Source of the DNA: a virus
Virus record (IMG/VR): IMGVR_UViG_3300033149_000928
Coordinates: 1-64,000 of that record
Direction: 5' to 3' (one strand)
Length of the DNA: 64,000 bases
The notes beneath the pieces are model-generated. The model saw nothing but the letters and a program-made list of their open reading frames with translations, made no database searches and had not been told where the DNA came from. Position 1 is the first letter of the stretch, and each line of letters opens with the position of its first letter. The translations under genes were made by a program, and so were the position numbers. Positions 11,800 through 38,533 of this stretch are shown here, in pieces.

Positions 11800-11822
11800 A
11801 CATGTATCTCCTTATGTACCCC

Positions 11823-14136: not shown

Positions 14137-14151
14137 ACCTATCTCCGATTG

Positions 14152-14277: not shown

Positions 14278-14417
14278 TATCTTTTCCCTTTCCTATTTCT
14301 ACTATGTTCTGCAATCCTAATGGCTACCCAAGCTTTCTCAGCCCTTTCCTTGGTATCATAGACGCACCTACCACTACCGATACGCCATTTCCCATTTGGG
14401 CATTTTGATACTGGCAT
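14277..14417 (-). CDS. Small hypothetical protein (46 aa)
   Basis: MPVSKCPNGKWRIGSGRCVYDTKEKAEKAW...; below the ORF-track cutoff. Confidence 0.55.
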   Translation of the reverse strand: MPVSKCPNGKWRIGSGRCVYDTKERAEKAWVAIRIAEHSRNRKGKR

Positions 14418-14434
14418 AATACTATTCCCTATAG

Positions 14435-14830: not shown

Positions 14831-14879
14831 ACTCTCCTTACCTGAACATACCTCAAAATAATAGTCAGACCATTCTGAC

Positions 14880-21377: not shown

Positions 21378-22985
21378 TTAGAATGAACCACCATCAACCG
21401 CAGCAACGGAAAGCGTTCCAGCAGCATGAGTAAGAGAATCATTGTCAATGGTAAGACCAACACCATTAGCACCAACAGTAACTTGACATACAGTTGCACC
21501 AGTTGTATCATCAGGATCGACTGAGAGTGTACTTCCACCACCACCTGCAATACCATTGCCTTGTGTTGCCAACTGCAACTGTGCTGAGCCATCAGCCTCG
21601 ATACCGACACCATCAATCGCAGCCACATCTACCGCAACACCATTAGCTCCTACACTGACAGGAACCAAATCACCACCAGACTCTGAGTCAGGATCAACAG
21701 AAAGTGTTGAACCATTACCACCAGCAATACCATTACCTTGAACAGCTAGACGGAGATTAGCTGAACCATCAGCCTCGACACCAGTACCGGCAATCGCTCC
21801 AATATCAACACCGACACCATTGGCTGTGATATTAGCTGGCTGGATATCTGAACCCGTTTCCGAGTCGGCATCAACGCTAAGCGTGGAACCATTACCACCG
21901 GCAATACCATTACCCTGTGTTGCAAGGCGGAGATTAGCTGACCCATCAGCTTCAACACCAGTACCAGCAATCGCTGAAATATCAACACCAGCACCATTAG
22001 CAGTAAGATTTACAGGTTGGACATTTCCGCCAGTCTCAGAATCAGCATCAACACTCACGATATTCGTGGTGATGTCGATACCGTTACCAGCACTAAGGCC
22101 CCCACCTTGGTTAATAAGTACCCAAGCACCAGTAGGTACAGTACCATCGAAGGCATACTGATTATTATCGTAATAGCCCTCTTGAACCATTATAGCATTG
22201 CCTTCAACTGCATCTCCTGAGGCAACACCAGTTAATGATGTTCCATCGAAGTCAACTACCTTACTATTATCCGTATTATCCGTATATGGAGAGATAAGTG
22301 CCGTACCAGTATCGGGGGCTAAAGCGGCTCTTACACCATCAGCAACAAAACCACCAGCACCAGTGGTAATTTTGACCCATGCTGATCCACTATATTCCCA
22401 GATATCACCAATTGCTGCCGCTGCCATACCTGCCGCACCATCAGCAGTTGAAACCGTATAGGCGTCACCAGTATTAGTTAAGACTTCGATAACCGATGCC
22501 GCAGCGTTACCAACGAGATTCAGAACATCAATCGGCTCTTTCCAACTTGTACCGGCAACCGCAGCATTAATAGCGGTCTGAATCTTAGAGGCAGTCCAAA
22601 GTTCAGAGGTCGTAGTTCCGCCATCATCGACAGCTTTCCCTGAGTCCTGACCTTTACCGTTGGCATCAAGACTTACGAGGTTATCTTCAGTACCGCCGAT
22701 ATCCGAAGTGATCTCGTCCCACGTTGCACCGTTATCCACAAACAACTCGTCAGTATCAGTAGCATAGAATAACCTACCAGCGACTGCCGCTGAGGGGATA
22801 CTACCAATAGCAGCCATAATAACACGACCAACGAGTAGATTAGATGCACCATCACCTACCCATAGTTCTTTTTGGTCATCGGTAGTGAAACCAAGTTCAC
22901 CCGATGCTAATGTAATTCCATCGAGAGCAGCCTTTGTACCTTTTCGTACTATGATAGTAACACCATACCAATTGCGGATTCTCAT
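21378..22985 (-). CDS. Fibre protein with RxWYG leader, Mtd_N-like domain and three 59-aa repeats
   Basis: MRIRNWYG|VTIIVRKGTK...GELGFTTD; repeat VDADSETG...QGNGIAGGNGSTLS x3 plus a partial copy; ends DGGSF. Confidence 0.7.
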   Translation of the reverse strand: MRIRNWYGVTIIVRKGTKAALDGITLASGELGFTTDDQKELWVGDGASNLLVGRVIMAAIGSIPSAAVAGRLFYATDTDELFVDNGATWDEITSDIGGTEDNLVSLDANGKGQDSGKAVDDGGTTTSELWTASKIQTAINAAVAGTSWKEPIDVLNLVGNAAASVIEVLTNTGDAYTVSTADGAAGMAAAAIGDIWEYSGSAWVKITTGAGGFVADGVRAALAPDTGTALISPYTDNTDNSKVVDFDGTSLTGVASGDAVEGNAIMVQEGYYDNNQYAFDGTVPTGAWVLINQGGGLSAGNGIDITTNIVSVDADSETGGNVQPVNLTANGAGVDISAIAGTGVEADGSANLRLATQGNGIAGGNGSTLSVDADSETGSDIQPANITANGVGVDIGAIAGTGVEADGSANLRLAVQGNGIAGGNGSTLSVDPDSESGGDLVPVSVGANGVAVDVAAIDGVGIEADGSAQLQLATQGNGIAGGGGSTLSVDPDDTTGATVCQVTVGANGVGLTIDNDSLTHAAGTLSVAAVDGGSF

Positions 22986-23068
22986 TACATTTCTCCTATG
23001 TGTAAATTGATTTACTAAATCAAAATCTAAAGCCAGTAATTAAAAAGCTCCCATTAACTAAAGTCTCA

Positions 23069-23233
23069 CTAGAAACTCCCACCATCCAACGTGTCTACGT
23101 CAAGTTTCCCCTTTATCCAAGTGTAAATTGCCAAGAAAGTAATATTATAGGAGGTAAGCGCCTTGACAAAATACGCTATACTCGCATCCGTTATTGTACT
23201 CGTACCTAACGCAGACAGTTTCTGATCAGCCAT
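23069..23233 (-). CDS. Small virion protein (54 aa) ending DGGSF
   Basis: AGGAGG RBS; MADQKLSALG...LDGGSF, same C-terminus as 21378-22985. Confidence 0.6.
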   Translation of the reverse strand: MADQKLSALGTSTITDASIAYFVKALTSYNITFLAIYTWIKGKLDVDTLDGGSF

Positions 23234-23246
23234 GTTTAATCCTCCT

Positions 23247-23477
23247 TTAGTCTTCTAATAGTAATCTATCACCAGATTCTAAAAGTAAATTGTCCCCTGT
23301 TTCAAGCAATAAAGCATTGATAGCACCAGTAGGCTCCTCTCCTAGTACCGTGGTTAAGATATCCTGAACAATAGATAATCGGAGAACTGATCTCATACCT
23401 CTAATAACCCTACGTCCCATCATATTCTCCTTTGCTGCCAGAACATAGCACCTATAGGTATACCGATTAATACCCAA
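23247..23477 (-). CDS. Small virion-associated protein with LLLExGD repeats
   Basis: C-terminus LLLETGDNLLLESGDRLLLED; start uncertain. Confidence 0.5.
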   Translation of the reverse strand: MGINRYTYRCYVLAAKENMMGRRVIRGMRSVLRLSIVQDILTTVLGEEPTGAINALLLETGDNLLLESGDRLLLED

Positions 23478-23782
23478 ATAATTGGGTACATATAGATATG
23501 CTCATTATTAGTGACATGAAGGATAACGTCTCCAATAAGAGAGATGACAGCTAAAGTAACAAGTATGAAAGGTTTCTGTATTGCTTTCTCTTTTACAGGA
23601 ACAAAGAAATGTCCCATTAATACACCTATCACAAGTGGCAACGTTAAACAACGTAAACCGTAGAACATAATAACTTCGGATATTGTATCTCCACGTTCGG
23701 GATTCATGAAAGGTACAATATCCCAAACTATTAGTCCGAGTGCCACTACTATTAGAATAATTTTAGTTATTTTTCTTAGCAT
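23420..23782 (-). CDS. Multi-pass membrane protein
   Basis: About four hydrophobic segments; DTISE and LMGHFF motifs. Confidence 0.6.
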   Translation of the reverse strand: MLRKITKIILIVVALGLIVWDIVPFMNPERGDTISEVIMFYGLRCLTLPLVIGVLMGHFFVPVKEKAIQKPFILVTLAVISLIGDVILHVTNNEHIYMYPIIWVLIGIPIGAMFWQQRRI

Positions 23783-23933
23783 CTTTAGCCCTAGCTTTTT
23801 CCTTTAGCCCTAGCCTTAGCATCTTTAGCCTTCTGTTTGAGTTCCTTATTACTCTTAAATTCTGGTACAACAATTGCTACTTCTTCCTTAATTTTTTTTA
23901 TCTTCTTAGCCACTTTATCTCCTATGGTAGTTC

Positions 23934-24593
23934 TTATGGACAAGTACGCAGAATATGTATTAACTTAATATTAACATCAACAGAACCTATAGACTCATAA
24001 CGAAATCTAACATAGATACCAGCAGGAATAAGTTTTGCATCTGAACAACAACACTCAAACTCCCAATTAGCCCATACATAATTAGTAGCTGCGAATTGTC
24101 CTAATACAAAATCTGCTCCATAGCCAAGAATATTATCGACATCAACCATTTCCACTTCAACATAATCCCCATCCTCTGGGTTCGCATCTAATTTAAATCC
24201 TATTCCTTGTAACATCATATTTTCAGTGTATTTTACTTCATGTTCTAATGTTTCCTCAGCCGTAGCTGTAATATTATATCCTTTACGGAAAATATTATAA
24301 CCTGTAAGTTCCTGGAAACCATTCACTTGAACAGGTGCAGGTATATCCTCTGGATTAGGTACACCTGTATGGGCCTCTACAATTGCTTGGAGAGTTGTTT
24401 GGTCTCCAGAGGACAATACATCTTTAAACCATATGTCTACGGTATCTCCATCCATATCAATATAGTCAACCGCTATTGATATCGAGGATGCGGATATCTC
24501 CTCTTGCAATGTCGTTAAATCTGGTGTTGCTTCTGTTAAACCCGTAAAATCAGTAGTTATTGATTTCGCGTATTTAGTTGGGGTTGGCATCAA
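23934..24593 (-). CDS. Structural-module hypothetical protein
   Basis: Acidic, beta-rich, between fibre genes. Confidence 0.5.
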   Translation of the reverse strand: MMPTPTKYAKSITTDFTGLTEATPDLTTLQEEISASSISIAVDYIDMDGDTVDIWFKDVLSSGDQTTLQAIVEAHTGVPNPEDIPAPVQVNGFQELTGYNIFRKGYNITATAEETLEHEVKYTENMMLQGIGFKLDANPEDGDYVEVEMVDVDNILGYGADFVLGQFAATNYVWANWEFECCCSDAKLIPAGIYVRFRYESIGSVDVNIKLIHILRTCP

Positions 24594-26206
24594 TTAATCC
24601 TCCACAATACAAGTCTAACTCTACGTATACTTACTTGCTTACCAGATGTAGCTGATGCATAGTCTATATCAAAAGTATGTGCTGCATTAGTTAATGTCCT
24701 AATAGCGAAACCAGCCGTAGCCTCATAGCTATTAGTATCTGTTTGAATATTTTGATTCGCTAAATCAGTAGAATTATCTTCTTGTACACGAAAAGCAACA
24801 TCAGTGCTAGTACCATTTCTAGCTACCTCAACCGACCATCCAACATAGTAATCTCCAGCTGGAATAACACTTGTAAGCATCGTAGCTTTCGTTTGCCAAC
24901 TTACACTTGTAGTTGATGATACGCCTTCAGACTTAGCTTCGTGAAATTGTGAACCAAATATAGCGTCTATAGCTGTATTGAGATTACCAAGTTGTACCCG
25001 TTTCTTTGCGTTTGCTACAGCGGAGTCCTCAATAACTATAAGATCAGTTGCTATTGGTGTGGACTTCTCAACAATAGAAACAATCTCACCTGATATATTG
25101 TCATGTATAGCAGTTGCATCAGCACCATCATCTACTGAAGGATTTGGATATGTTCCATTTAAATCCCCACCTGCTGTTCCAGTTGGTATACGGGGTGTAG
25201 TAGTATCATCAAGTGTCGCATCTGTAATCTTAGTATTTAGATTTGCAAGAGTATCTGCTATATGTGCCGACCCACCAAGCGCATGTGTAATACCTGTACT
25301 TAAAGTACTAAGTAAAGCTTTCTTTTTACTATAAGAATCCGCACTATCTTCAATAATAATAATATCTGCATTAACAGGGGTACCCTTCGCACTAATAGCA
25401 TTAATCTCACCAGGTATATTATCATGGATAGCTACATGATCGTCGCCATCTGGTAGACCAAGAGTACCTCCACCAGTTATTGAGGTAGTACCAGATACTT
25501 CCGTAGCAGTAAGATATAACGTACCAGTATCCACATCATAAGCTGTAGATGCCTCAAGTATCGAAGTAACTACGGATACCGTACCAGTACCATCAACCTC
25601 AATACCAGTACCACTAGGAGCTTCAATATGTTCTACTGTAACAATAATACTACCAGTATCATCAACATATAATGCTGTACCTGCTCCGCTAACCTCAATA
25701 TGATTAAACTTAGCGAAGATTTTACCAGTTGTAGCTGCGTCTCCAATAGCGATACCAGTATCAACTAAAGCTTCATGTCCTATGAGTTCAAGTTCACCAG
25801 CAGCACAATGAACACCGTTGGCTCCACTTGTTGCTTCAAGGATTTCAATAAATGCTTTTGCTCTACCTGCTCCAGCAGTTTTTGAAATTACTGTTCCACT
25901 CGCAACTATACACCAATGAGCTAAGAGATATGCTTCATCTCCAAGAATATGATTACCTACAAGCTTAGCAAATGGAGCTTTCAAAACTACATAAGGTGGT
26001 ATTGTTAAATTCTCAGTATATATCCCACCATCGACAACTAAAATACCAATAATATTAGAGGCACTAGGAGTATCGCCACTAGCAGCCGCAAGAGCAGCAG
26101 TAGCTGTTAAGAATGGTTCACTAAGACTTTTGCCTGTATTGGTATCTAAACCATACTTAGCAACATAATATTGCTGTATAGAATCTGGCAATGGAGTATA
26201 CGCCAT
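24590..26206 (-). CDS. Tail spike/fibre-like protein with beta-helix region and internal repeat
   Basis: YYVAKYGLDTNTGKSLSEPFLT N-terminal cap; duplicated AIHDNIxGEI...IIEDSA. Confidence 0.6.
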   Translation of the reverse strand: MAYTPLPDSIQQYYVAKYGLDTNTGKSLSEPFLTATAALAAASGDTPSASNIIGILVVDGGIYTENLTIPPYVVLKAPFAKLVGNHILGDEAYLLAHWCIVASGTVISKTAGAGRAKAFIEILEATSGANGVHCAAGELELIGHEALVDTGIAIGDAATTGKIFAKFNHIEVSGAGTALYVDDTGSIIVTVEHIEAPSGTGIEVDGTGTVSVVTSILEASTAYDVDTGTLYLTATEVSGTTSITGGGTLGLPDGDDHVAIHDNIPGEINAISAKGTPVNADIIIIEDSADSYSKKKALLSTLSTGITHALGGSAHIADTLANLNTKITDATLDDTTTPRIPTGTAGGDLNGTYPNPSVDDGADATAIHDNISGEIVSIVEKSTPIATDLIVIEDSAVANAKKRVQLGNLNTAIDAIFGSQFHEAKSEGVSSTTSVSWQTKATMLTSVIPAGDYYVGWSVEVARNGTSTDVAFRVQEDNSTDLANQNIQTDTNSYEATAGFAIRTLTNAAHTFDIDYASATSGKQVSIRRVRLVLWRIN

Positions 26207-26227
26207 GTCATTCCCCTATAATATTAC

Positions 26228-26977
26228 TTAGAGTACCCACCATTCTGTACCATCACAGAATACATCTAAGGATTCATATTGTGCTGTGATATCTTTGGTT
26301 AAAGAATCATCAATAGTCTCAGTACCATTACCATCGAGAGTCACATTATTTGCACTGGCATTTAACTTCTTAACTCGATACAGTACTCCAGAAGAGGAGG
26401 CTACTGCTGGTAAATTAATAGTTATAGCTCCACCTGTTGTATCGCAAAGTATAATACCCTCACCACCTGGAGTATATGGACTATCGGTATTATCAATATG
26501 TACGAAAGTACCATTTCCAGGAGTTACCCACTCTAATCCAGTTGCTTTAGAATTATTAGCAGCAAGTTGCTGTCCATTTATTCCTACTGGAAGTCGAGAT
26601 ATCGCATCATCTCCAGTACCTGCTAGGAGATCACCTTTCGCATCAACGGTGGAAACCATTAATGCACCAGCACTAGCTACATTAGTAGGGTCAGTGATAT
26701 CTGCTAGAGCCTCAATGCCATCTAACTTAGCGATCTGAGCAGCAGTCGCTACTCCCTTTTGTACTGCCGTGGCATCCTGGATATCATCAGTACCATCTGT
26801 ATGGTCAGTAGCATGTAAGAGTTCAGCTTTGGTATCTGCAATATCCCGTACTGCTTTCTCTGTAGCTAATGAAGTATCAACACCTGGAGTACCAATAGAT
26901 GTTGCTACATCATATCCATCTTCAATATGATTTCCATCAGCAGCCTTTGGGATTTTTCCTGCTGTGAGATCAGCCAT
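26228..26977 (-). CDS. Fibre-like structural protein
   Basis: KLDGIEALAD, DAKGDLLAGTG...RLPVG, CDTTGGAITINLP, VTLDGNGTETID. Confidence 0.6.
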   Translation of the reverse strand: MADLTAGKIPKAADGNHIEDGYDVATSIGTPGVDTSLATEKAVRDIADTKAELLHATDHTDGTDDIQDATAVQKGVATAAQIAKLDGIEALADITDPTNVASAGALMVSTVDAKGDLLAGTGDDAISRLPVGINGQQLAANNSKATGLEWVTPGNGTFVHIDNTDSPYTPGGEGIILCDTTGGAITINLPAVASSSGVLYRVKKLNASANNVTLDGNGTETIDDSLTKDITAQYESLDVFCDGTEWWVL

Positions 26978-27012
26978 ATCATTTCCTTTGATTTACTAAA
27001 TCAAATTGTAAT

Positions 27013-27453
27013 TTAGATAGCATATACCGGCTCTTCATCAGTATTATAAATTTGCTCTTCATCCGTATTGAAAAGTCCTTCGGGAGCACCAAGATTCACT
27101 CCCATTAATTCAAAGCTAACCTCATAAGAACCACAGTTAGTATCTCTCTGTGTTATAATATCCATAGGGTTGGAGATAACAACTCCTTCCCAAACTTCAT
27201 TGTTATGATCTGTTATTTTAATCTGTTCACCAGCAGAGGCTATCAAAATAGCTTCAAAATCCTCTTTTGTGGTTTTCTTTAAATTACTAAAGGAGAAAGT
27301 ACGCATCTCCTTATTAGGCCAACCTGCATCTTTAACACTTTTAACCTCTCCACCTATAGTTTCACGGTTAACTGCGTAAGTCCTGAGACTATGGGTATCT
27401 CCCAATTCTGGGTTTCGTAAAGCAACATAACCACCATCGTAATAAAAGATCAT
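27013..27453 (-). CDS. Minor tail (distal-tail-like) protein
   Basis: LRNPELGD paralog; close downstream of the tape measure. Confidence 0.55.
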   Translation of the reverse strand: MIFYYDGGYVALRNPELGDTHSLRTYAVNRETIGGEVKSVKDAGWPNKEMRTFSFSNLKKTTKEDFEAILIASAGEQIKITDHNNEVWEGVVISNPMDIITQRDTNCGSYEVSFELMGVNLGAPEGLFNTDEEQIYNTDEEPVYAI

Positions 27454-27950: not shown

Positions 27951-28000
27951 GGGTACTGTCTCCTTTGATTTAGTAAATCAAAGCGGCGAAGCCGCCTCCC

Positions 28001-31000
28001 TCAAAACCTAAGTGTCTTTCTACGGATTTGTCTCTGTAAGAGTTTCCCAACCTTAGTAACGTCATAAGCTTCATTGCCACTGGACTGCATATTGATATTC
28101 ACATCACCAACATTGGTTACAGAGCCGCCACCTTGGAATGGTTGGATACCGGCATTCATAGCTACGAGTTGCGTATGGAACTTCCTAGCTGATCTTGCGT
28201 TCATCACGAACTCACCAGGAGTAAGCATAGCGGGTACGGTGTCTGTACTTCCTGGGACATCTCCTCCTGCTGCTCTACCTAATGGACCGACTTTATCTCT
28301 AATTTGAGCTAATAAAGCTGGAATATCTACTGTTTGTGCTTTCTCAATCTTCTTTAAGTGGTCGTTCCTATCTCTATCCGCTTGTTCAGTGAGGCCAAAG
28401 GTTTTATCGAATGCTTTTCGAGATTCCTCTACTTGCTTTTTCGATGCCTCAGTTAATTTCTTTAGTTCACTAACTGCATTATTATCTCTAGTAATTCTAA
28501 ATAACCTCAATACCGCATCTTCAAAAGTACTAATTGCAGCGACACCTTCTTCCGATCTTTGGCCTCTAAAGAAAGGAGCTAGTTCTTGTTGTGATCTCTC
28601 GAAATCTTCAATAGTTTTTATTAATACTGCTGCACCCTTAGCTGTTGGGTCTTTTAAGAACGGAGCTAAATCAGCTCTGAATTTAGCAAAATCTGGTCCT
28701 AATTTTGCAAAAGTACTTATAAGATCAGTTCTAGCCGCAGGTTCTGATCCTCTTAATTTAAGTTCTGCTTCCTTTTGTACTTTTATTCTATTCTTAAGCC
28801 CTTCTTCCTGGAGTTTGATTGTCTTTCTTACAGTTTCTAGTTCTTGTTCCAAAAGTTTCTTTTTAAGGGTTTCCTCTATCTGTGCTTCTTTCTTAGCTAA
28901 TTGCTCTTGAGCAACTATGGCAGTTTTAGGGTCTTTTACACTGGCCTTTTCAATGGTCTCTCTTGCTTTATCAACATCTTTTAAGGCTTTTAATAAATTA
29001 ACTATTTGTTCATCAACATCATCTACCCCGATTAAATCTTTAACTTTGAGTTTACTTATTTCTCTTGACTGCTCTTGTATAAGTTTAAGATTCTTTTCCC
29101 GTCTTTCTGTTTCTTCTTTTGCCTCCTTTGTGGCTTGTTTTGCTGCTTCCGCTAATTCCTTTTCAAATTCAATTCTCTGTTTTATAAGTGCATTTTGTGC
29201 TTTTGAAATTTCAAGTTGTTCAATCTCAATAGGTTGACGTTCTTTGATCTCTTGAGTAATATTTGCTGTTACTGTTAATAATTTTCTAATACGTTCGTTA
29301 TTTTCTCTTTCAAAACGTTCTTGATCTCGTTGAGCTTTAAGTACTGCCTTATCTTTGCTTTGTATACTCTTAATCTCACCATTTACACTAGTAATACTTA
29401 TTCGTGCACCGGCTCTTATTCTAGCATCAATCTTATTTTCAAAAGTCAATCTCTTATCAGCCGCTTTAAGACGTAAATTTTCTAAATCTGTAGCGGCTTT
29501 CTTTCCCCGTTCCCGTAATTTATTAACTTCCTTCTCATTAGATTCATTCTTCTCCGCTGTATCTGATTGGAGTTTAGCTGCTTCCTCAAGTAATTTCTTT
29601 GTTATATCAAAAGCTGCCCTTGCATTACGTTGAGATTGTTGGTCAGTACCCGTTATTGAGATAGCAGCAACAAATTGTTTTTGAGCTTCAGCTATAAGTA
29701 ATCGTTGTTTTGCTTGAACATCTACTGCACTATCTAATTGTTCTCTAAGTATATTACTAGCTAATTCTCTTTTGAGGTCAGCAATATTCTTAGTAGTTTG
29801 TTCAATAGTCTTTTCTGAGTCCTTAAGAATATCATTAAGGTCTTTAATGCCTGCTTGTATTGACTTAATAACATCTTGGTATGCGAGTTTAAGTCCATTT
29901 GCTAATTCTTTATCTAGTCCGACTTGAGTATCTAATTGTTTACTTAATACACTTTGGACTTGAGCTATAGCCGCTTTAGCTAAGCGAAACTCTACTTCAT
30001 ATCCACTCTCGATAATTTTGAGTCGTGCTGTAGTTTGATCTTTAAGTTTCTTAACAGATTCATTATAGAAATCATCTGCTTCTTTAATAGCTTCATCATA
30101 GGAATTAGTGACTGAATCAAAGGCTAATTTGAGTCCTATACCTGCCGCTGTCAGTCCCGCAACAAGAGCGCCGAAGGGAGTGACAATGATAGCTAAATTT
30201 AGACTCACAAGTGCAGCAGCCGCTAAACCAATAGCTGGGGCTAAGAAAACAGTAATAACACTAGCAAAGAGCTTAACACTATCAGATAAAGATAAAACAT
30301 TATCATTAACAAATTTAATTGTATCAATAAGGTCTCTACCAATTTCCTCAGTAAAGAAGTTCTTAATCTTATTTACTTCGATACGGATTTCTCTACCCGT
30401 ATTAGTTAAGGTTTCTTTAAGAGCCACTTCATAAGATGCTTGAGCCTCTTGGAGTTCTTTCCAGTTATTTTCAAAAGTCTTGAGACCTCTACCGGCAAAG
30501 ACCATTGCGCCACTGATAGCACGAATACGTCCAAAGATTTTACCTAATTCAGAAGAACTACCCTTAGTACGTTCTTCAATTTTCGCAAGTACACCACCAA
30601 ATCCGAAAGCAGCAATTGCAGCTTCACCAGATACAACACCCCATTCTCTAAAGAGTTTAGTCATTTCCGCAGTTGGGCGGATTAATTTTAACAAAATGTT
30701 GCGAATTGCTGTTTGGGCCTTTTCGAATGGCACACCACGTATTGTAACTGTAGTAATAGCAGCGGCAAGGTCTGTAAATGAAAGCCCTAAATTAGCTGCC
30801 GGAACAGCACTTTGTCCTATAGTATTTGCCATTTCATCAAGACGCACACGACCAAGTTCAATCGTCTTAAATGTTTGTGCTGCTATATTTGCAGTATCAT
30901 CAAGGGTAAGATTAAAAGCATTCTGTACAGCAGAAAGAAACTGTACTGAAGCAGCGGCATCTGAAACACCAACAAGTGCTAATTCATTAGCAGATTTTAA

Positions 31001-32053
31001 GAAACCAAAGGCTTCCGCACCTTTAGCTACTTGGTTAGATAAAGTTTGATATGCAGCTTCAGCTTGATCTAATAAATCAAAACCAAAGGCATCACTTAGT
31101 TCACGTAATCCTTCTGCCCATCTATCGGTAGTGAGTTGATTCTGTTGAGAAATCGTTCGGATTTCTGAGATACGTATACTAAACTCAATCGCATCTTCCG
31201 TTGCTCTTTTCACTTCTTGAATAAATTTACTTACTGCTCTATGGATAACTTGCACAACGACAACACGTAAGAATGTTTGCCATGAGAGAGTAAGTTTTTG
31301 TACCCGATCTTTAGCAGTATCTAAACTTTCATTTAATGGTTTAGTTGAAGATGCGACTCCAATAAGCTGACCATTGACACTGGTTAAAGTTGCAGTAAGT
31401 TTTTGTCCATCTGTAGTTGTAGCATTCCAGATTTCTTGAGTACGATTTGATGCCGTATTTATTTTCTTTGATATTATAAGTCCTTCTAATTGACCTTTAT
31501 TCTTTTGTTGTTGTAAAAGATTAAGTTCATTTTGTGCTCTCTTCATTTGATCGGCAAGTTTATTTTCAGCGCGTATTCTTGCTTCCGTTGTTTGTGCTTG
31601 CTTGATCCTAACACTAAGTAAATTATTCTCTGCATCTGCAACAACTTGCACTGTATTACCAGTGGCATCTAAACCCGACCTAACTAATTTTTGTAATTTA
31701 CCATTCTTATCAAGTACAGTATTAATTCTTAAGAGTGTTTTAATACGTTGATTAGCTACTTCATCAGCACGTAATCCTGCTTTAGTACCTTCTTTTAAAG
31801 GAGGAATAACTCCTTCTTGAGCCGCTATGTAATCCTCAAGTTGTTTTATTAATTGACCTAATCCCTTAAATGACCCTACCTCAGTATTAAATTTACTCAT
31901 ACTCTCAGTAAATGCTGCTACACCTTTATTTAAATCTAAGAATGCATCTCTTAATTTATTTATTTCTGCAATAGAATCCCTAGTGTCGAAGACAATATCT
32001 CCGCCAAACTCTTCGCCACCATACCATTTACGATTTTTGATTTGGTAAATCAA
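28001..32053 (-). CDS. Tail tape measure protein (TP901-like core)
   Basis: About 1350 aa, helical/coiled-coil, AYQTLS...FKTIELGR core, TDTVPAMLTPGEFVMN near the C-terminus. Likely TTG start at 32053 (AGGTGG RBS, overlaps upstream TGA). Confidence 0.9.
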   Translation of the reverse strand: MIYQIKNRKWYGGEEFGGDIVFDTRDSIAEINKLRDAFLDLNKGVAAFTESMSKFNTEVGSFKGLGQLIKQLEDYIAAQEGVIPPLKEGTKAGLRADEVANQRIKTLLRINTVLDKNGKLQKLVRSGLDATGNTVQVVADAENNLLSVRIKQAQTTEARIRAENKLADQMKRAQNELNLLQQQKNKGQLEGLIISKKINTASNRTQEIWNATTTDGQKLTATLTSVNGQLIGVASSTKPLNESLDTAKDRVQKLTLSWQTFLRVVVVQVIHRAVSKFIQEVKRATEDAIEFSIRISEIRTISQQNQLTTDRWAEGLRELSDAFGFDLLDQAEAAYQTLSNQVAKGAEAFGFLKSANELALVGVSDAAASVQFLSAVQNAFNLTLDDTANIAAQTFKTIELGRVRLDEMANTIGQSAVPAANLGLSFTDLAAAITTVTIRGVPFEKAQTAIRNILLKLIRPTAEMTKLFREWGVVSGEAAIAAFGFGGVLAKIEERTKGSSSELGKIFGRIRAISGAMVFAGRGLKTFENNWKELQEAQASYEVALKETLTNTGREIRIEVNKIKNFFTEEIGRDLIDTIKFVNDNVLSLSDSVKLFASVITVFLAPAIGLAAAALVSLNLAIIVTPFGALVAGLTAAGIGLKLAFDSVTNSYDEAIKEADDFYNESVKKLKDQTTARLKIIESGYEVEFRLAKAAIAQVQSVLSKQLDTQVGLDKELANGLKLAYQDVIKSIQAGIKDLNDILKDSEKTIEQTTKNIADLKRELASNILREQLDSAVDVQAKQRLLIAEAQKQFVAAISITGTDQQSQRNARAAFDITKKLLEEAAKLQSDTAEKNESNEKEVNKLRERGKKAATDLENLRLKAADKRLTFENKIDARIRAGARISITSVNGEIKSIQSKDKAVLKAQRDQERFERENNERIRKLLTVTANITQEIKERQPIEIEQLEISKAQNALIKQRIEFEKELAEAAKQATKEAKEETERREKNLKLIQEQSREISKLKVKDLIGVDDVDEQIVNLLKALKDVDKARETIEKASVKDPKTAIVAQEQLAKKEAQIEETLKKKLLEQELETVRKTIKLQEEGLKNRIKVQKEAELKLRGSEPAARTDLISTFAKLGPDFAKFRADLAPFLKDPTAKGAAVLIKTIEDFERSQQELAPFFRGQRSEEGVAAISTFEDAVLRLFRITRDNNAVSELKKLTEASKKQVEESRKAFDKTFGLTEQADRDRNDHLKKIEKAQTVDIPALLAQIRDKVGPLGRAAGGDVPGSTDTVPAMLTPGEFVMNARSARKFHTQLVAMNAGIQPFQGGGSVTNVGDVNINMQSSGNEAYDVTKVGKLLQRQIRRKTLRF

Positions 32054-32571
32054 ACTGTCCACCTAGTAGTCGAGATTAGATTTTTATTTAAATATTTTCT
32101 AATTATAGGAAAAATATTCTCTACTATATATTTTTCTGTTTGCAATCCTGCTTCTTCGATAGTTCTCCAAGGTGTATTGGGTATTGCAGTAGCATCGTAT
32201 TCATTCTCTTCCCAGTAATTAACTCCTGGTGCTTTGTTAAGATCAGCTACAGTAGAAGAGAAACCAAAAATATATAAACCTCTTTCTATTACCCAAAAAG
32301 CTTTACCTTGGTCTACTCCTGTACCTACATTCTTACCTTCTCGATTCGGTTCTTCTGCATCATCATAATTAATTGTCAACCCAAATTCAATAGCAGCGGC
32401 AGTTAAAGATGCTCTTGCTTGTCCAGTCCATGCAGGTACTGAATCCTTTCCTATCATACCTTGAATAAAATATTGAGCGGCCTTATAAAGCATACCTTTC
32501 ATAAGATCATCAATATCCCGTTCGATAGTTTTCTTAATATAAGGCATCTTAATTTTAGCTACAAATTTCAT
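32050..32571 (-). CDS. Tail morphogenesis protein (HK97 gp10-like)
   Basis: VPAWTGQARASL resembles the PVxTGxLRxS motif; tail-module context. Confidence 0.5.
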   Translation of the reverse strand: MKFVAKIKMPYIKKTIERDIDDLMKGMLYKAAQYFIQGMIGKDSVPAWTGQARASLTAAAIEFGLTINYDDAEEPNREGKNVGTGVDQGKAFWVIERGLYIFGFSSTVADLNKAPGVNYWEENEYDATAIPNTPWRTIEEAGLQTEKYIVENIFPIIRKYLNKNLISTTRWTV

Positions 32572-33235: not shown

Positions 33236-33259
33236 TACAAACCCTTTCTTCCCTCAAAC

Positions 33260-33300
33260 TTGCTCCACGGTTTGATTTACTAAATCAAACCGTGGAGCAA
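33260..33300. terminator. 41-bp palindrome (20-bp arms) centred on the 17-bp motif, downstream of the tail tube gene
   Basis: TTGCTCCACGGTTTGATTTA-C-TAAATCAAACCGTGGAGCAA. Confidence 0.55.
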
Positions 33301-33307
33301 CAAAAAT

Positions 33308-33829
33308 CTACTGACGCACAATCAGAGCATCAGTGGCATTACACTGACCTGTAACCGCAACAGTACCAGCAGAAAGATCATGTGCAAGACTCGTATAACG
33401 GAAGTCAGGGAGCGTGATAATTTCATCAAGCTCACCACCACAAGGTGGCACATAATCCACTTCAATATCAACCGCGTAGGGTTCACATGGGTCAGAAGAA
33501 CTTGATACCCAACCCGATGCTTCACCACGCTGCTTCAATGCATCTTCAACAGTCGGTGTACCTGCCGCCGTTGTGGACACAGCCTGGAGGAACTCCCAGG
33601 TAAAATCAAAACGAACGTCAATCGGCTCTTCGTCACCTTCCTTAACGGTGTCAAGGAGTCCACGGTCACGAACATACTCGATATTCTTTCGTTCATCATA
33701 AGTGAGAGTACCCTCACCAATCTTCACTTCAAGACTTTGCTGCGCAGACCCAACACCACCATCTTTAAGCCAGATGGTGGCATTTTTGAGATCAATCTGT
33801 GCACCATACCATCTACGATCTCGAAACAT
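33308..33829 (-). CDS. Major tail tube protein (RxWYG leader)
   Basis: Directly upstream of the G/GT chaperone; acidic, beta-rich, 173 aa. Confidence 0.75.
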   Translation of the reverse strand: MFRDRRWYGAQIDLKNATIWLKDGGVGSAQQSLEVKIGEGTLTYDERKNIEYVRDRGLLDTVKEGDEEPIDVRFDFTWEFLQAVSTTAAGTPTVEDALKQRGEASGWVSSSSDPCEPYAVDIEVDYVPPCGGELDEIITLPDFRYTSLAHDLSAGTVAVTGQCNATDALIVRQ

Positions 33830-33832
33830 ATC

Positions 33833-34567
33833 TTACTCCTCAGCAAGTTCCATTGTATAGTGACGTTCTACACCTGCCTGTAAGACTTCAGCGGCAGGTT
33901 GTAGCTGACCAAAATGACTTACCTGAAGGTTCTTACGTTTACCATCTTGTGCTTGTAAGCAACCTAAGAAAGTATCATCATCCTGGATTTCCTTCCCATA
34001 ACGATAAGTGAGGATATTATTCGTGAACAACGATGTAACGAAATCTGTCTGTAAACGAATATTATGGAAATCCTTATCACTTTTCGGTACGGTAATGATC
34101 GCGTTCACTTCCACAATTAATTTCCACCAGCCCTTTGAAAATTGCTGAAAGAAAGGACCGTCTACACGAAGCTCAAAAAATTCTAATTGATCTTGAGTCT
34201 CGCGATGTTCTCCTTCGAGGAACATGAAAAGCCCTGATCTCAAGTCCTCGAAGTGTTGACAAATAGAAGCATAAATCCAACGCCCCCAGTTGGCATTTAC
34301 GCCTCCGCTCGGTGACGCCCCCGTCACTGAGAAATCTACACTATCTGATACGGTTCCTGTAGAGCCGATTGACATGACCCTGCCAGTATAATCTCCAGGA
34401 GCTACACCTTCTATCTCGATTGTTCCGTTGCCAATAATTGAATTAATGGTATGCCATCTATTGTTATTACGGGTAGTGAAGACGAGAACATTAATTGATC
34501 CCGCTTCCGCACCCGTTATAGTTGCTGTTGAACCAACGATATTAAGCGTTGGGATAGCTGTTGGCAT
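33833..34567 (-). CDS. Tail terminator-like protein with extra N-terminal Ig-like domain
   Basis: Position before the tail tube; beta-rich N-domain, SPSGG linker. Confidence 0.5.
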   Translation of the reverse strand: MPTAIPTLNIVGSTATITGAEAGSINVLVFTTRNNNRWHTINSIIGNGTIEIEGVAPGDYTGRVMSIGSTGTVSDSVDFSVTGASPSGGVNANWGRWIYASICQHFEDLRSGLFMFLEGEHRETQDQLEFFELRVDGPFFQQFSKGWWKLIVEVNAIITVPKSDKDFHNIRLQTDFVTSLFTNNILTYRYGKEIQDDDTFLGCLQAQDGKRKNLQVSHFGQLQPAAEVLQAGVERHYTMELAEE

Positions 34568-35006
34568 TAGTTATTCCTAAAGCATTCAATAGTATTTGGA
34601 TGTTATTACGTCCCTTAATAGCCACATTAATATGTGGATATTTCCGTTTGAGTTGACTCTCTCGTACCGTATCTCCAGTATAAACTACGTATGGAATATT
34701 ACGGTGGTTACTCTCGAATTCTTCAACTATTTTCTTACCGCTATCTTTTTGTTCTAGATTCAAATCAATAATAGCGCAAATTATTGATATGTTCTCTTCA
34801 TGTAAAATATCTAACGCATCTATCGAATTATCAATGACTTTTGATTTAATATGTTTTGATTCAAGTATCTTCTGTAGATACTGAGCTACATGAGCGTCAT
34901 CTTCAATAACAAGACAGAAACCATCAGGACAAGTTGCTTGCCTCAATGCAACACGGGTATGTTGCGAACTTGAGAAGAAGTCTGAGATTGTTTTCTTATT
35001 CATCAT
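34542..35006 (-). CDS. Stand-alone response-regulator receiver (CheY-like) domain
   Basis: LVIEDD acidic pocket, AIIDLNL phospho-Asp, SG, VVYTG, AIKG. Confidence 0.8.
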   Translation of the reverse strand: MMNKKTISDFFSSSQHTRVALRQATCPDGFCLVIEDDAHVAQYLQKILESKHIKSKVIDNSIDALDILHEENISIICAIIDLNLEQKDSGKKIVEEFESNHRNIPYVVYTGDTVRESQLKRKYPHINVAIKGRNNIQILLNALGITNANSYPNA

Positions 35007-35226
35007 CAGATTTACCAGCCTTGTAATTCTGAAGAGCATCCTTGACCTCTACCATTAGACTATTAGAAGTCCGTATTAACTCTGCTAGGCCACCCATTAA
35101 TTCTTTACATTCTGAAATCAAGGACTCGACCTGTCCTTGCTGGTTTATATTTTGTTTATAGAGTACCCCTATGGCTGCTGCGAGAGCACCTATAACACCG
35201 ATGATAACTGAAAGAGGGATTTCCAT
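34996..35226 (-). CDS. Small single-TM coiled-coil protein
   Basis: VIIGVIGALAAAIGVLY TM helix, then coiled coil. Confidence 0.6.
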   Translation of the reverse strand: MEIPLSVIIGVIGALAAAIGVLYKQNINQQGQVESLISECKELMGGLAELIRTSNSLMVEVKDALQNYKAGKSDDE

Positions 35227-35253
35227 ATTTTTCCTTTGTACTTATGCTTGTGT

Positions 35254-35541
35254 TTACTGACTAATACGCACTAAAGCTGTACCACTACCATAATCACCTA
35301 CTTTAAAACCAATACGATAGTAGATATTTTTCTCAGGATCATCGCCTACTTTTTGGTCATTTAATGTGAAAGCTTCAACATCAAACCAATCTTGCCCATT
35401 AAAAGAACGTTGAAGAGTAACAGTACCCGTCCAAGTTCCAGAGATGGACATATTAAAGACTTCATTCCTTAAACGTATTACTGCGAAGTCATCTGCTTGT
35501 GATATACTCTTTTCAGTTGCAGCTATCGCATCGGTAGTCAT
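35254..35541 (-). CDS. Small beta-rich virion protein
   Basis: SISGTWTGTVTLQRSFNGQDW, YYRIG. Confidence 0.6.
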   Translation of the reverse strand: MTTDAIAATEKSISQADDFAVIRLRNEVFNMSISGTWTGTVTLQRSFNGQDWFDVEAFTLNDQKVGDDPEKNIYYRIGFKVGDYGSGTALVRISQ

Positions 35542-36041
35542 ACTGTACCCTCCACTTCCTCAAAGAATTCGATTTGGGCACTTACTTCTTTATTGTGCCA
35601 TTCAAAAGGTAATTGTTGAACAGTTTGTTTAGCTACAATATACATTGCTAATCCATCAGCATAAGAGTTTACCTCTTTTAGATTATAACGCTTATGCTGA
35701 TAGATTAAGTGCCATTGTAAATCAACCTTTACAGTATCTCTAACTGCACGTGGGAGGTCTTTTGTCTCTATGATGTAATCCCTAATTCCCATATCATAAT
35801 AAGCACCATACTGGAAATTCTTATTAGCAGCAAGGAAAGTAAGGTCATATGCAAATTTCCGCATTAATTGTTTAGGTAGTGGTATCCCTCTTTTGATTTT
35901 ATAAACATTATAATCCATAACTATCTCACCAGTTTTAACATTATTGCTACTACTGGTGACTTGATATAAATACATACGATCACCATACTGTCTTTTCAGA
36001 CGGTATAGTAATCTCTTCATTTGTGCTTTAATGGTGTACAT
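35538..36041 (-). CDS. Head-closure/head-tail joining protein (putative)
   Basis: Directly after the capsid gene; LKRQYG...NVKTGE. Confidence 0.55.
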   Translation of the reverse strand: MYTIKAQMKRLLYRLKRQYGDRMYLYQVTSSSNNVKTGEIVMDYNVYKIKRGIPLPKQLMRKFAYDLTFLAANKNFQYGAYYDMGIRDYIIETKDLPRAVRDTVKVDLQWHLIYQHKRYNLKEVNSYADGLAMYIVAKQTVQQLPFEWHNKEVSAQIEFFEEVEGTV

Positions 36042-36113
36042 TTTGTTTATTTCTTTTGATTTAGTAAATCAATTTGGCTCAGCCAGTGGCGTAGCCAGTG
36101 GCGCAGCAGAGGG

Positions 36114-36148
36114 TGGGGTGAGTGAGCCACAGTAGCTCACTCACCCCA
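36114..36148 (-). terminator. Stem-loop after the capsid gene
   Basis: TGGGGTGAGTGAGC-7 nt-GCTCACTCACCCCA perfect 14-bp stem; no strong U-tract. Confidence 0.55.
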
Positions 36149-36161
36149 GAGCAAGGCGACA

Positions 36162-37556
36162 CTACCCAAGCAACACCGCACCCAAGTTCGTATCAAGAAC
36201 CTTCACACCACAAAGGAGGTCCACGGTCACTAAGTGACCCTGAGACGTACCATTGTAAGTGATCGTAACGCGAATCGCGACACCATTAGCACTCGCCACG
36301 GCACTCAAAGCACCAGTACCGGCTCTCGGAAGAGCAAGAGGACGCGAAACAAAAGTAATAGCATTCCGATGGAAAGCAAAGTTATAGCTTCCAGCGGGAC
36401 CAATACACACATCGTCATTATTGGCAATAGCAGCACCAAGAGGACGATCCAACGTGATACCGATAAGAGCATTAACCGCAATGATCGTATAGATATCAGT
36501 TGTGGTGGAATCACCGAAGGTCACGAACTGACCAACCTGCGGGGCGACCGTGAAGCCATCAATCACGATTTCCTTGGCGTAACCAGCCGCGTAATCACCG
36601 ACCTTATTGACTTCACCAGGAGTATAAACCGTGATATCAGCATCATCCACGACAGCCGTAGAAAGACCAGGAGCAAGAACCGTGATAGTAGTCGGCGTAG
36701 CACCGACAACCGCTGAGACGACCCGAAGAGGAGTCATATCCCCTTCAATGGTAATCCATGAGCCAGCCGCGATTGCAGCACTGAAACCATCAACCGTAAA
36801 CACGGTTGAACCAGCCGCATAACCAGCGCCAAAATTAATCTCGCCAGCCGTAACGGTATTACCCACAGCGACCGAGGACATATGCTGATCCATGTAGTTA
36901 TCAAAGCCAAGCTTACGGCCCATGCTAGCTTCACGGAGAGCAGTACCTTCGTCACCAACGGTATTTGCGGTTAAGAAAATCTCAGTATCTAGAGCCTGAG
37001 TCTCACCATCAGGGTTCCAAACGAGATTCCTTCCCTGAGCATATGCCAGATTCTCGTTCATGACCTTACGAGTCTGGAGCATATACTGCTTAGCGGTCGT
37101 ACCACTGAGACCACCAATCATTCCAGCTTCATTAGCCAGGAACTGGGGCCATTGACCAAGGATAACCTTATCGGTTGCCTGGGCAATGGAGAGAACCGCA
37201 GGACCAAGATGGACTTCGATCAAGTCCTTCATGGACTTCGACAGTTCGCCATCCTTAATGGTAAAAGATGTATGGAAGTGCTGATCCAGAGGAACCTGGA
37301 TATTCGTGAGACTCGCATCCTGTACCGTCACATCATCATTATCGGTCTTCCTCTCAGCCGTAAATGTACCGGGCTGACGAGTATTGACGAGATCGCCTTG
37401 ACTCGCAATTTCCATCGAGAAATCCCGATGAACGAGATTAGCAGCGACCATATTTTCGGTTAAGATAGCGACAGACTCATTAGCCCAGACTTCCGGGATA
37501 AGTGCATCGTTATCATTGACACCGTACCAACTTCTACTTCTAACGTATCGAAACAT
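36162..37556 (-). CDS. Major capsid protein, P22 coat-like, with two inserted beta domains
   Basis: ALIPEVWANE, LVHRDF, GDLVN, GRKLGFDNYMDQ, AFHRNAITFVSRPL, VDLLCGVKVLD. Confidence 0.9.
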   Translation of the reverse strand: MFRYVRSRSWYGVNDNDALIPEVWANESVAILTENMVAANLVHRDFSMEIASQGDLVNTRQPGTFTAERKTDNDDVTVQDASLTNIQVPLDQHFHTSFTIKDGELSKSMKDLIEVHLGPAVLSIAQATDKVILGQWPQFLANEAGMIGGLSGTTAKQYMLQTRKVMNENLAYAQGRNLVWNPDGETQALDTEIFLTANTVGDEGTALREASMGRKLGFDNYMDQHMSSVAVGNTVTAGEINFGAGYAAGSTVFTVDGFSAAIAAGSWITIEGDMTPLRVVSAVVGATPTTITVLAPGLSTAVVDDADITVYTPGEVNKVGDYAAGYAKEIVIDGFTVAPQVGQFVTFGDSTTTDIYTIIAVNALIGITLDRPLGAAIANNDDVCIGPAGSYNFAFHRNAITFVSRPLALPRAGTGALSAVASANGVAIRVTITYNGTSQGHLVTVDLLCGVKVLDTNLGAVLLG

Positions 37557-37582
37557 GGACTATCTCCTATTTCCTTGTTTGT

Positions 37583-38533
37583 TTACTTCACTTCGTCTAA
37601 AATGTTTTTGCCATCTTTCTTCAGTTTCTCTCTTCTTGCAATGTATTGCTCCGTGGTTAAGTTCCCCACGTCAACACTACCACCAGAGCCTTGGACTCCG
37701 GCTGCATCCCCTAACCCACCAGTGACGTTAGCCTTGAAGAGATTCCCGTACTGCTGTGGGATATCCTTCATCTTTGCTACGGCTTCCGCAACCGGGAGAT
37801 CAAGTGTAACAGGTTTACCATCACCATCCACACCAGCTAATTTGGTTCGAGGAATCAAATTACCTGTGGCCTTACCCTCTCCATCCAATTCCTCGGATAG
37901 AGTAGTATTCGGAATTAACAGAGTAACGATTTGTGGGGGCGAAAACGCATCGTTAGCTACTGCGGCATCCAAGATAGCTCTACTAATTGTCTCGTTTGTA
38001 TACCGCTCTTGAAGAGCGTTGAGTTGATTTTGTAAATCAGTTACCTGTGTTGCATTCTCATTCTTGATTCGATCTTGTTCCTGTTTTGCAAGTTCCTCCT
38101 TTGTTTTAAGTTGATCGTTGAGTTCTTTGACTTTACCAGTGAGTTTAACTTTTTCTTCAGCCGTTAGACTGCCAGATTGAAGAGCTATGACTGTATCTTC
38201 AAGCTCAGTAACTTTAGATTGGAGTCCACGCTTATTATTAGCAAGCATCTTATTCACTTGTTCTTGCGTGAAGGTTTTAGGTTTAGTTCCACCTTCTCCG
38301 CCACCTTCTCCGCCAATACCGTCACCAGCACCATCGCCATCACCTGCTCCAGCGCCATCTCCTGCTCCAGCACCATCTCCAGCACCATCTCCAGTACCAT
38401 CTCCGCCACCTTCTCCGCCACCTTCTCCTTCACCATACCAACTACGATCTTTGATTTTGTAAATCAAAGATGCTGGTACACACATACTAACCACATCACT
38501 CATACTAACCACATCACACTCAAACATCTCCAC
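37583..38533 (-). CDS. Capsid scaffolding protein
   Basis: Gly/Asp/Glu-rich N-terminus, KTFTQEQVN motif, coiled coil; directly upstream of the capsid gene. Confidence 0.85.
   Translation of the reverse strand: MEMFECDVVSMSDVVSMCVPASLIYKIKDRSWYGEGEGGGEGGGDGTGDGAGDGAGAGDGAGAGDGDGAGDGIGGEGGGEGGTKPKTFTQEQVNKMLANNKRGLQSKVTELEDTVIALQSGSLTAEEKVKLTGKVKELNDQLKTKEELAKQEQDRIKNENATQVTDLQNQLNALQERYTNETISRAILDAAVANDAFSPPQIVTLLIPNTTLSEELDGEGKATGNLIPRTKLAGVDGDGKPVTLDLPVAEAVAKMKDIPQQYGNLFKANVTGGLGDAAGVQGSGGSVDVGNLTTEQYIARREKLKKDGKNILDEVK

Follow-up and report, generated by a model that had tools for sequence, protein, structure and literature searches.

The phage-encoded prohead proteases of HK97, T4 (gp21) and phiKZ-type phages act inside the prohead, where they cleave the propeptides of head proteins. 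The coat of P22 is not known to need proteolysis for its assembly. The internal proteins of T4 carry a capsid targeting sequence, an N-terminal tag of about 10 residues that is found on unrelated proteins and is removed after use; it is known only from proteins that are packed into the head, and its use requires the prohead protease.

According to two reports on the Staphylococcus phage 80alpha (PMC5744158, PMC9405229), Prp, a cysteine protease of the host, removes the leaders from the capsid and scaffold proteins and also trims ribosomal protein L27. The second report gives the L27 motif as MLxx(D/N)LQ(F/L)F|A(S/H)KK (PMC9405229). In PMC5744158, the motif cut by Prp is also noted for the major tail protein of the staphylococcal phage phi13, so that a leader on a tail protein has a precedent. 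The same paper describes the 80alpha scaffold leader as essential for assembly and leader cleavage as dispensable, and thus a leader of this kind may work uncut (PMC5744158).

We analysed a window of 64,000 nucleotides from an uncultured phage, the complete genome of which has 84,413 bp and a GC content of 40%, and belongs to the lower-GC branch of its family, with a basic R-x-W-Y-G tag. An earlier note on this DNA had claimed a common N-terminal leader on five virion proteins, and all five N-termini were found on the minus strand as described: R/N-x-W-Y-G ends the leader of the scaffold, the coat, the tail tube, the tape measure, and one fibre. The leaders and the neighbouring genes are as follows.

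38985..40769, minus strand: portal protein (phrog_145, E 3e-32)
38539..38988, minus strand: head-tail adaptor (phrog_477 adaptor Ad1, E 8e-17; PF20557), encoded between the portal and scaffold genes
38432..38527, minus strand: scaffold leader MFECDVVSMSDVVSMCVPASLIYKIKDRSWYG, 32 codons from an ATG with an SD site (ORF 37583-38533); N-terminus ...SLIYKIKDRSWYG-EGEGGG
37521..37556, minus strand: major capsid protein leader MFRYVRSRSWYG (ORF 36162-37556); N-terminus MFRYVRSRSWYG-VNDND
33803..33829, minus strand: tail tube (major tail protein) leader MFRDRRWYG (ORF 33308-33829); N-terminus MFRDRRWYG-AQIDL
32018..32053, minus strand: tape measure leader M-IYQIKNRKWYG with a TTG start (ORF 28001-32062); N-terminus M-IYQIKNRKWYG-GEEF
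23069..23233, minus strand: 54-codon ORF, split-off N-terminal part of the fibre, with a homologous segment in the related genome G001
22962..22985, minus strand: fibre leader MRIRNWYG (ORF 21378-22985); N-terminus MRIRNWYG-VTIIVRKG
19898..21310, minus strand: leaderless fibre paralog, MMAVDIQVRRGTK... (phrog_4492 tail fiber, E 1.6e-37)

The scaffold ORF matched scaffolding-protein PHROGs, and its leader is followed, as in orthologs, by a G/E/D/A-rich linker. The capsid ORF matched phrog_283 (major head protein, E 9.6e-59), and a PF11651 (P22_CoatProtein) match with E 7.7e-26 was obtained in the ORF set containing the capsid gene; a coat of the PF11651 family, with the scaffold encoded by a gene of its own immediately upstream, corresponds to P22-type assembly. 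The tape measure ORF matched tape measure PHROGs (E 4e-30), and the tube, an ORF without a PHROG or Pfam match, was assigned by gene order, as it lies two genes ahead of the tape measure. An Mtd_N-type N-terminal domain was found on two members of the ORF set that includes the fibre. The tag is associated here with a fibre gene split in two: in G001, the segment homologous to the 54-codon ORF (MADQKLSDLS...) is in frame with the fibre, and that fused fibre has no leader.

WYG occurs seven times in the long reading frames of the whole 84,413-bp genome, and five of the seven occurrences are these N-termini; within the first 35 residues of the 128-ORF set, five were observed as compared to 0.18 expected (Poisson P 1.4e-6). 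An SD-like site with normal spacing precedes each of the five leader starts, that of the scaffold lying at the ATG 31 codons before the G, and the scaffold product begins MFECDVV.... As a check on whether translation could begin after WYG, the five genes were searched for start codons between WYG and the conserved mature sequence; none was found, and translation therefore does not begin past WYG.

Leaderless orthologs begin precisely where the leader ends, those of the tube with M-AQIDFKKAT or M-ARIELRD, and the conserved mature capsid sequence NDNDALIPEVW begins directly after the capsid leader. The tagged N-termini are otherwise tightly conserved from residue 2 onward. When the capsid, tube, and fibre were aligned with their leaderless orthologs, the G stood at the position of the initiator Met. 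The earlier note had the leader take the place of this Met; its internal control, the paralog 19898-21310, aligned to the fibre as described, but it starts with MMAVDIQVRRGTK, with two Met residues and not one. The leader directly precedes the native N-terminus, as the note had proposed. For the putative cut, because G aligns with the initiator Met, WYG| would be at least as likely as WY|G.

The phage is one of a large family of uncultured, long-tailed phages whose coat is of the P22 type and whose scaffold is a separate protein. Throughout the family, a tag of 8-30 residues stands exactly before the native N-terminus of the scaffold and the coat; certain lineages, this one among them, carry it on the tail tube, the tape measure, and further proteins too. 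Among 35 non-redundant genomes, the coat leader was more similar to the scaffold leader of its own genome than to those of other genomes (means of 30.6 versus 17.6; 0 of 20000 permutations as high), although some of the alignments reach residues before Met, and a few scores may be inflated. The own scaffold was the single best match to the coat leader in 18 of the 35 genomes, and in 8 of them the similarity was not above the cross-genome level. The same was seen for nine pairs of tube and coat leaders (mean 33.7 versus 13.5; again 0 of 20000 permutations as high). We found no description of phage-specific co-varying virion leaders in the literature.

The peptide could be a by-product of a DNA- or RNA-level element, either a portable translation-initiation cassette or a regulatory site. 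The tape measure leader and the end of the scaffold leader are identical at 32 of 36 bases, a pairing that is also present in L118, the closest relative, and the continuation of some leader alignments a few residues before Met would fit such an element as well. It is contradicted by the codons: in 26 within-genome coat-scaffold pairs, synonymous codons differ at 90 of 156 identical residues, and the octapeptide MRIRNWYG, which serves as leader of the fibre in this phage and of the tube in G001, is encoded with 4 of 8 codons different. Moreover, the 5' untranslated regions of the five leader genes are dissimilar apart from the SD site. Thus, we regard a nucleic acid element as highly improbable. 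The earlier note had argued for a peptide-level signal from the codon of the conserved Y, which is indeed TAC in the capsid leader, the four remaining leaders having TAT; the conserved R is encoded by CGT, AGA, CGT, CGT, and CGC. Its argument is borne out by the synonymous differences together with the within-genome matching and between-genome divergence over the 35 genomes. As judged from these comparisons, the tag is shown to be selected as a peptide, and to change in concert across its carriers within a genome.

The idea that R-x-W-Y-G represents one set specificity did not hold. The tags of relatives are phage-specific and end, depending on the phage, in Y, F, H, R, I, G, or C, and on these alignments R-x-W-Y-G is one local version of a family-wide tag. 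In contrast, the extension of the leader to tail proteins, seen here in the tube, tape measure, and fibre, was found in relatives too, since 13 of 68 non-redundant tube orthologs carry the leader of their own phage. G001 and L118 have four carriers each, the tube is among the carriers in G005 and G021, and the carriers of G002 include two 95-residue paralogs and a Pam3_Gp34-like protein, one tag carrier of G002 being a replication-module protein. A direct start at M-A-x-I-D/E-L was found in 48 of the 68 tube orthologs, and in one lineage both the coat (M-ANSLDAY...) and the scaffold are leaderless. By this distribution, the leader is an add-on. None of the core genes tracked leader presence, but this is a weak test, since the one genome without any leader is 80% complete, with a break at one of the candidate genes.

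As the earlier note had stated, there is no prohead protease between portal and capsid, where the single gene 38539-38988 encodes the head-tail adaptor. We also considered this gene as a protease and rejected it, as its PHROG and Pfam matches and the weak fold matches of its predicted structure point to a neck adaptor. The best eight solved-structure matches of its AlphaFold2 model (pLDDT 79.6) were seven phage neck, connector, or adaptor chains and B. subtilis YqbG, all of them weak (E 0.26-1.6). No peptidase families were among the Pfam matches listed for 126 of the 128 candidate ORFs of the genome (the best 25 of 27 and the best 25 of 28 families in two tables, the rest being up to five weak matches). 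These results support the absence of a recognisable prohead protease of the S78, S77, S49/ClpP, or S80 type from this phage.

The search for a Prp-like protease elsewhere in the phage genome, suggested in the earlier note, was negative (PF04327, 0 matches at E up to 1). A host Prp could still be hijacked if it cut leaders that mimic an L27 extension in its host, with a motif of the WY|G type; the aromatic residue followed by a small one at the boundary resembles the FF|A of the motif in PMC9405229. However, that L27 motif is wholly missing from the leaders. Additionally, in the Planctomycetota genomes with related prophages, L27 is short and begins M-AHKKG (M-AHKKGQGSS) in 5 of 5, contrary to the expected L27 extension, and PF04327 was above the cut-off in 0 of 5; these results cover the hosts of related prophages, which leaves some room for Prp in the host of this phage. 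In the five prophage-bearing genomes, a back-translated search for LYLS[QR]P[FW] gave, apart from two chance sites, no matches other than the coat and scaffold genes of the prophages. Furthermore, the tags vary far more among related phages than L27 extensions do among hosts, and cleavage by Prp in the strict sense is very unlikely.

A small C92 (YiiX-like, permuted papain) cysteine peptidase of the phage itself was another candidate for cutting the leader. Some relatives have such a gene, namely G002, G013, and two Planctomycetota prophages. PF05708 is found in a 67%-identical relative, and all 132 of the 132 family members retain the His and Cys. Nevertheless, the gene was absent from this complete genome when searched with the Pfam model (E up to 10) and with profiles of 132 and 53 sequences. 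Of the related records, 2 of 10 and 6 of 26 contain it, as do 2 of 6 records at least 90% complete, and the complete leader-bearing genomes G000, G005, G021, and G029 (this genome and three others) lack it. As the cutter in this genome, the C92 peptidase is refuted, barring a homolog too divergent for a profile search, and we give it next to no credence.

We infer, at about even chances, that R/N-x-W-Y-G is this phage's version of a family-wide phage-specific leader that is recognised by one reader and removed. A single trans-acting reader would recognise the tag on every carrier, and the tag would be removed during or before assembly, by analogy with the action of Prp on the 80alpha leaders. 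The reader would be neither Prp nor, in this genome, the C92-type cysteine peptidase of some relatives, but either an enzyme of the host or a phage protein that went unrecognised. The variable last residue of the tag would be odd for one protease family, and the lack of peptidase families among the Pfam matches listed for the 126 ORFs speaks against this reading.

Alternatively, the tag may stay on the protein uncut, as an assembly or addressing tag acting through like-with-like pairing or docking onto one chaperone or hub. Pairing of this kind would give the matching partner sequences, changing fast in concert, that are seen in the coat-scaffold and tube-coat comparisons, and the negative protease searches (Prp, C92, and the Pfam matches listed), the unconserved last residue, and the need of 80alpha assembly for the scaffold leader and not for its cleavage, as described in PMC5744158, are all consistent with it. 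On the other hand, the carriers are so diverse, ranging from head and tail proteins to fibres and, in G002, a protein of the replication module, that one common physical contact is hard to picture. Moreover, 48 of 68 tube orthologs and a whole lineage manage without the tag, which sits on N-termini otherwise conserved from residue 2. An uncut tag is less likely than a removed one, and we hold it only tentatively.

More speculatively, and with a rather low probability, the tag could be a phage-private address code, a rapidly co-evolving peptide that labels the phage's own virion subunits and is read like-with-like or by a fast-evolving, non-orthologous reader. The code would serve to gather the subunits, to time them, or to separate them from the subunits of related phages in the same cell (kin discrimination in assembly). 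It might also conceal them, until assembly, from sensors by which the host detects capsid and tail proteins, and proteolysis, if any, would be secondary.

If a specific factor reads the leader, a large, widespread group of uncultured phages marks and matures its virion proteins without a prohead protease or the Prp/L27 system. Among the genomes examined, this one is the most extended case, with head, tail tube, tape measure, and fibre tagged. In annotation, the predicted N-termini of these virion proteins should be kept at full length and not cut back to the part that is conserved.

Like the substrates of prohead proteases, several virion proteins here have a short putative processing motif in common. 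The phage differs in having no recognisable gene for such a protease among the Pfam matches listed (126 of 128 ORFs), in its coat of the P22 type, and in carriers that include tail and fibre proteins, which are not known to occur inside the prohead. With the capsid targeting sequence of T4, the tag may have in common its length of about 10 residues, its N-terminal position, its presence on unrelated proteins, and a putative removal after use, but here it is also found on the tube, tape measure, and fibre. The likeness to 80alpha put forward in the earlier note is the closest: in both, a short leader is common to scaffold and coat at the extreme N-terminus, a phage prohead protease is absent, a major tail protein can be included, as noted for phi13, and a hydrophobic or aromatic residue is followed by a small or acidic one at the boundary. 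Unlike those of 80alpha, the leaders here are not similar to the L27 motif, and Prp is absent from this phage and from the five hosts of related prophages, in which L27 is short. There are five carriers here, the tape measure and fibre among them, on which cleavage is putative, drawn by analogy. Finally, whereas leaders of the 80alpha type copy one conserved host motif, the tag described here is phage-specific and co-varies among the proteins that carry it.

All five N-terminal leaders proposed in the earlier note, on the scaffold, capsid, tube, tape measure and one fibre, were confirmed by translation and read exactly as given there. Each of the five genes has a normally spaced Shine-Dalgarno-like site ahead of its start codon, which is TTG in the tape measure and, in the scaffold, most likely an ATG that gives a 32-residue leader. 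The stretch from WYG to the conserved body contains no start codon in any of the five carriers, which excludes translation starts downstream of WYG, a possibility that the earlier note had raised. Genome-wide, long reading frames contain seven WYG, five of them in the leaders; within the first 35 residues it was observed 5 times versus 0.18 expected (128 candidate ORFs; P 1.4e-6). An 18-base direct repeat that encodes SDVVSM twice lies in the 5' portion of the scaffold-leader sequence (about 38470-38515 of the window, minus strand).

The carriers belong to a complete genome of 84,413 bp with direct terminal repeats and a GC content of 40%, the first 64 kb of which form the window. Its late genes are all on the minus strand.

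Late genes of the window, in order from terminase to fibres
40875-42533, minus strand, large terminase
38985-40769, minus strand, portal
38539-38988, minus strand, adaptor of 149 residues, assigned by family and predicted fold
37583-38533, minus strand, scaffold, leader carrier
36162-37556, minus strand, capsid, leader carrier
between capsid and tube, minus strand, small head and neck genes
33308-33829, minus strand, tube, leader carrier
between tube and tape measure, minus strand, two genes in the chaperone position
28001-32062, minus strand, tape measure, leader carrier
between tape measure and fibres, minus strand, distal tail genes
21378-22985 and 19898-21310, minus strand, two fibre paralogs

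Several other genes of this phage deserve mention. Within the head-tail structural module, 34542-35039 (minus strand) encodes a receiver domain of the CheY-like response-regulator type (PF00072, E 7.4e-9); the related genome G001 has a homolog with 40% identity, and in another relative, G004, a receiver-like ORF lies directly 3' of the capsid gene. The product of 42537-43085 (minus strand), in the small-terminase position, matches no family, and its N-terminal invariant C21, C30, C41 and H44 suggest a zinc ribbon. Likewise, invariant D147, D161 and K163 suggest a PD-(D/E)xK nuclease in the strongly conserved 320-residue core protein of 59979-60941 (minus strand), which is also without a family match. 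The small tail-region proteins of 19036-19425 and 27013-27453 (minus strand) share an LRNPELGD motif and match the same prophage ORF; they are probably paralogs of each other. Pfam matches in the ORF set of the first 46 kb include Kelch-repeat, radical SAM, glycosyltransferase, acyltransferase and dATP/dGTP diphosphohydrolase proteins (10504-19022 and the tail region), and a sigma-70 family factor with regions 2 and 4, kept in most relatives, is encoded outside the window (73992-74654 of the record, minus strand).

Contigs that encode capsid relatives were collected, 42 of them viral and 14 from genomes. The start of the mature capsid is conserved as (A)NDxDA-x-(I/V)PE-x-W, and the leaders ahead of it vary widely from phage to phage. 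In most genomes, however, the last few residues of the scaffold leader, encoded directly upstream, are those of the capsid leader of the same genome (for example KKF[YV]LLY, ARP-F-AVY, PFVPVY, NRPY[FY], PF[YI]PVY, [LT]VH and LYLS-P---C[YF]). Among 35 non-redundant genomes, the mean similarity of the two leaders was 30.6 for own pairs versus 17.6 for cross pairs, with none of 20000 permutations as high, some alignments extending to a few residues ahead of the Met. The own scaffold leader was the best match to the capsid leader in 18 of the 35, and similarity did not exceed the cross level in 8. An alternative reading is a cassette at the DNA or RNA level. Yet, in the 26 better capsid-scaffold pairs, which share 156 identical residues other than Met and Trp, 90 of these are encoded by different synonymous codons, and therefore neither recent gene conversion nor a nucleic-acid motif explains the match; we consider the cassette highly improbable. 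These codon differences bear out the peptide-level signal claimed in the earlier note, and, judged from the sequences, the leader is a peptide signal within a family-wide system. R-x-W-Y-G itself is the form that this tag takes here; in G001 the tag ends in [LN]-W-Y-G, and across the family its sequence differs widely among phages.

One lineage (loci L021-L023 and L033) lacks both leaders: the capsid begins with M-ANSLDAY, and the scaffold likewise begins without any extension. The complete 129-kb genome G027 (locus L201) has a single TAA that breaks the capsid match and a leaderless capsid start, M-LVPEVW, and its scaffold keeps a leader-like MLFWYEILASY ahead of an acidic linker. In loci L007 and L013, the capsid match starts only at residue 34 or 57, and a LAGLIDADG-like ORF (...ILDGEGSF...) lies upstream, in the place expected for the end of the scaffold and the start of the capsid; the capsid gene may there carry an intron or a homing-endonuclease insertion.

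The extension of the leader to tail proteins, found in the window, also recurs in relatives. In G001, [LN]-W-Y-G closes four leaders, those of scaffold, capsid, tube and tape measure. In the closest relative, L118, R-x-W-F-G ends the capsid and tube leaders, and IY-x-IR...WYG is common to scaffold and tape measure; the window has the same pairings, so these were inherited. Tube orthologs came from 79 loci; among the 68 that are non-redundant, 13 have a leader, 48 start directly with M-A-x-I-D/E-L and 7 are unclassed. For the nine with a capsid in the same locus, tube leaders resembled their own capsid leader far more than others (33.7 vs 13.5; 0 of 20000 permutations as high). The fibre of G001 is a single leaderless gene. 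Here it is split: the first 54 codons form a separate ORF (23069-23233), and the remainder restarts with MRIRNWYG, identical to the G001 tube leader with 4 of 8 codons different. Such a leader-bearing split fibre is peculiar to this window. Further carriers in the related genome G002 are a homolog of gene 2463-3113 and two 95-residue paralogs; the latter form a tandem pair at 26225-26829 (plus strand) of its contig, just 5' of the terminase genes, with the G002-type leader (MRFAVATPVATSY, MKFAIATSFASSF).

Counting back from the conserved capsid Trp, the initiator Met of leaderless capsids aligns with the G of WYG, as it does in the tube and the fibre paralog. In the G001 capsid this position is occupied by Y, not G, and across the family the tag ends in Y, F, H, R, I, G or C, depending on the phage. 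With these alignments, the putative cut may fall at either WY|G or WYG|.

The search for a reader of the tag, with the protease hunt suggested in the earlier note, covered the host protease Prp, which also trims ribosomal protein L27. The phage genome encodes neither Prp nor L27. Prophages with this capsid family lie on long contigs in Planctomycetota genomes; in five such genomes L27 starts with M-AHKKG, and Prp was above cut-off in none. Nor was a host gene with the prophage leader motif found in the five: back-translated LYLS[QR]P[FW] matched only prophage coat and scaffold genes and two non-leader sites, and host mimicry was rejected. In these five hosts of related prophages, the short L27 and the absence of both Prp and a host leader motif argue that strict Prp/L27 hijack is not the mechanism of the family; for the present tag we hold it very unlikely.

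No peptidase appeared among the Pfam matches listed (126 of the 128 candidate ORFs). A transglutaminase-like match (E 0.0038) fell in a 100-codon plus-strand ORF within minus-strand genes and was taken as spurious. As the earlier note had observed, no prohead protease lies between portal and capsid; gene 38539-38988 is, by family and predicted fold, a neck adaptor, and on that fold a hidden protease was rejected; a sequence search of solved structures gave no E below 0.16. Some relatives (2/10 and 6/26 records) encode a YiiX-type permuted papain-like peptidase, C92, with invariant His and Cys, which could cut the leader. However, three profile searches did not find it in this complete genome, and it is also absent from G005, G021 and G029, all of them complete and leader-bearing, which rules it out as a general reader and makes it scarcely credible here. 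No core gene tracked the leader in a presence/absence comparison with leaderless genomes, a weak test because G027 keeps its scaffold leader and is not fully leaderless, and the G011 contig is broken. Gene 2463-3113, whose product resembles Pam3_Gp34/DUF5895 phage proteins, was rejected as leader-linked since its apparent absence from leaderless G011 reflects a contig break exactly there. Gene 1306-1803 gave no match in the family search.

According to PMC5744158, in 80alpha host Prp removes matching capsid and scaffold leaders, the scaffold leader is essential while its cleavage is not, and the phi13 major tail protein also shows the Prp motif, which is given in PMC9405229. A tag left uncut, for assembly or addressing, is possible for the present phage but somewhat unlikely, and some further reading has a small chance. 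To a removable leader, read by a host or phage factor, we give about an even chance. Capsid identity to cultured phages (Vibrio, Streptomyces, Clostridium and others) is at most 33%, with no close cultured relative found, and therefore their experimental data are not transferable. In the open literature searched, the only pertinent papers were those on Prp and 80alpha, and none described the present leader family. To that family this genome contributes the broadest carrier set and the split fibre, and it clearly contradicts the C92 hypothesis. Among known systems, that of 80alpha comes closest: the layout of the present tag is like it, but the features that define the 80alpha system are not shared.
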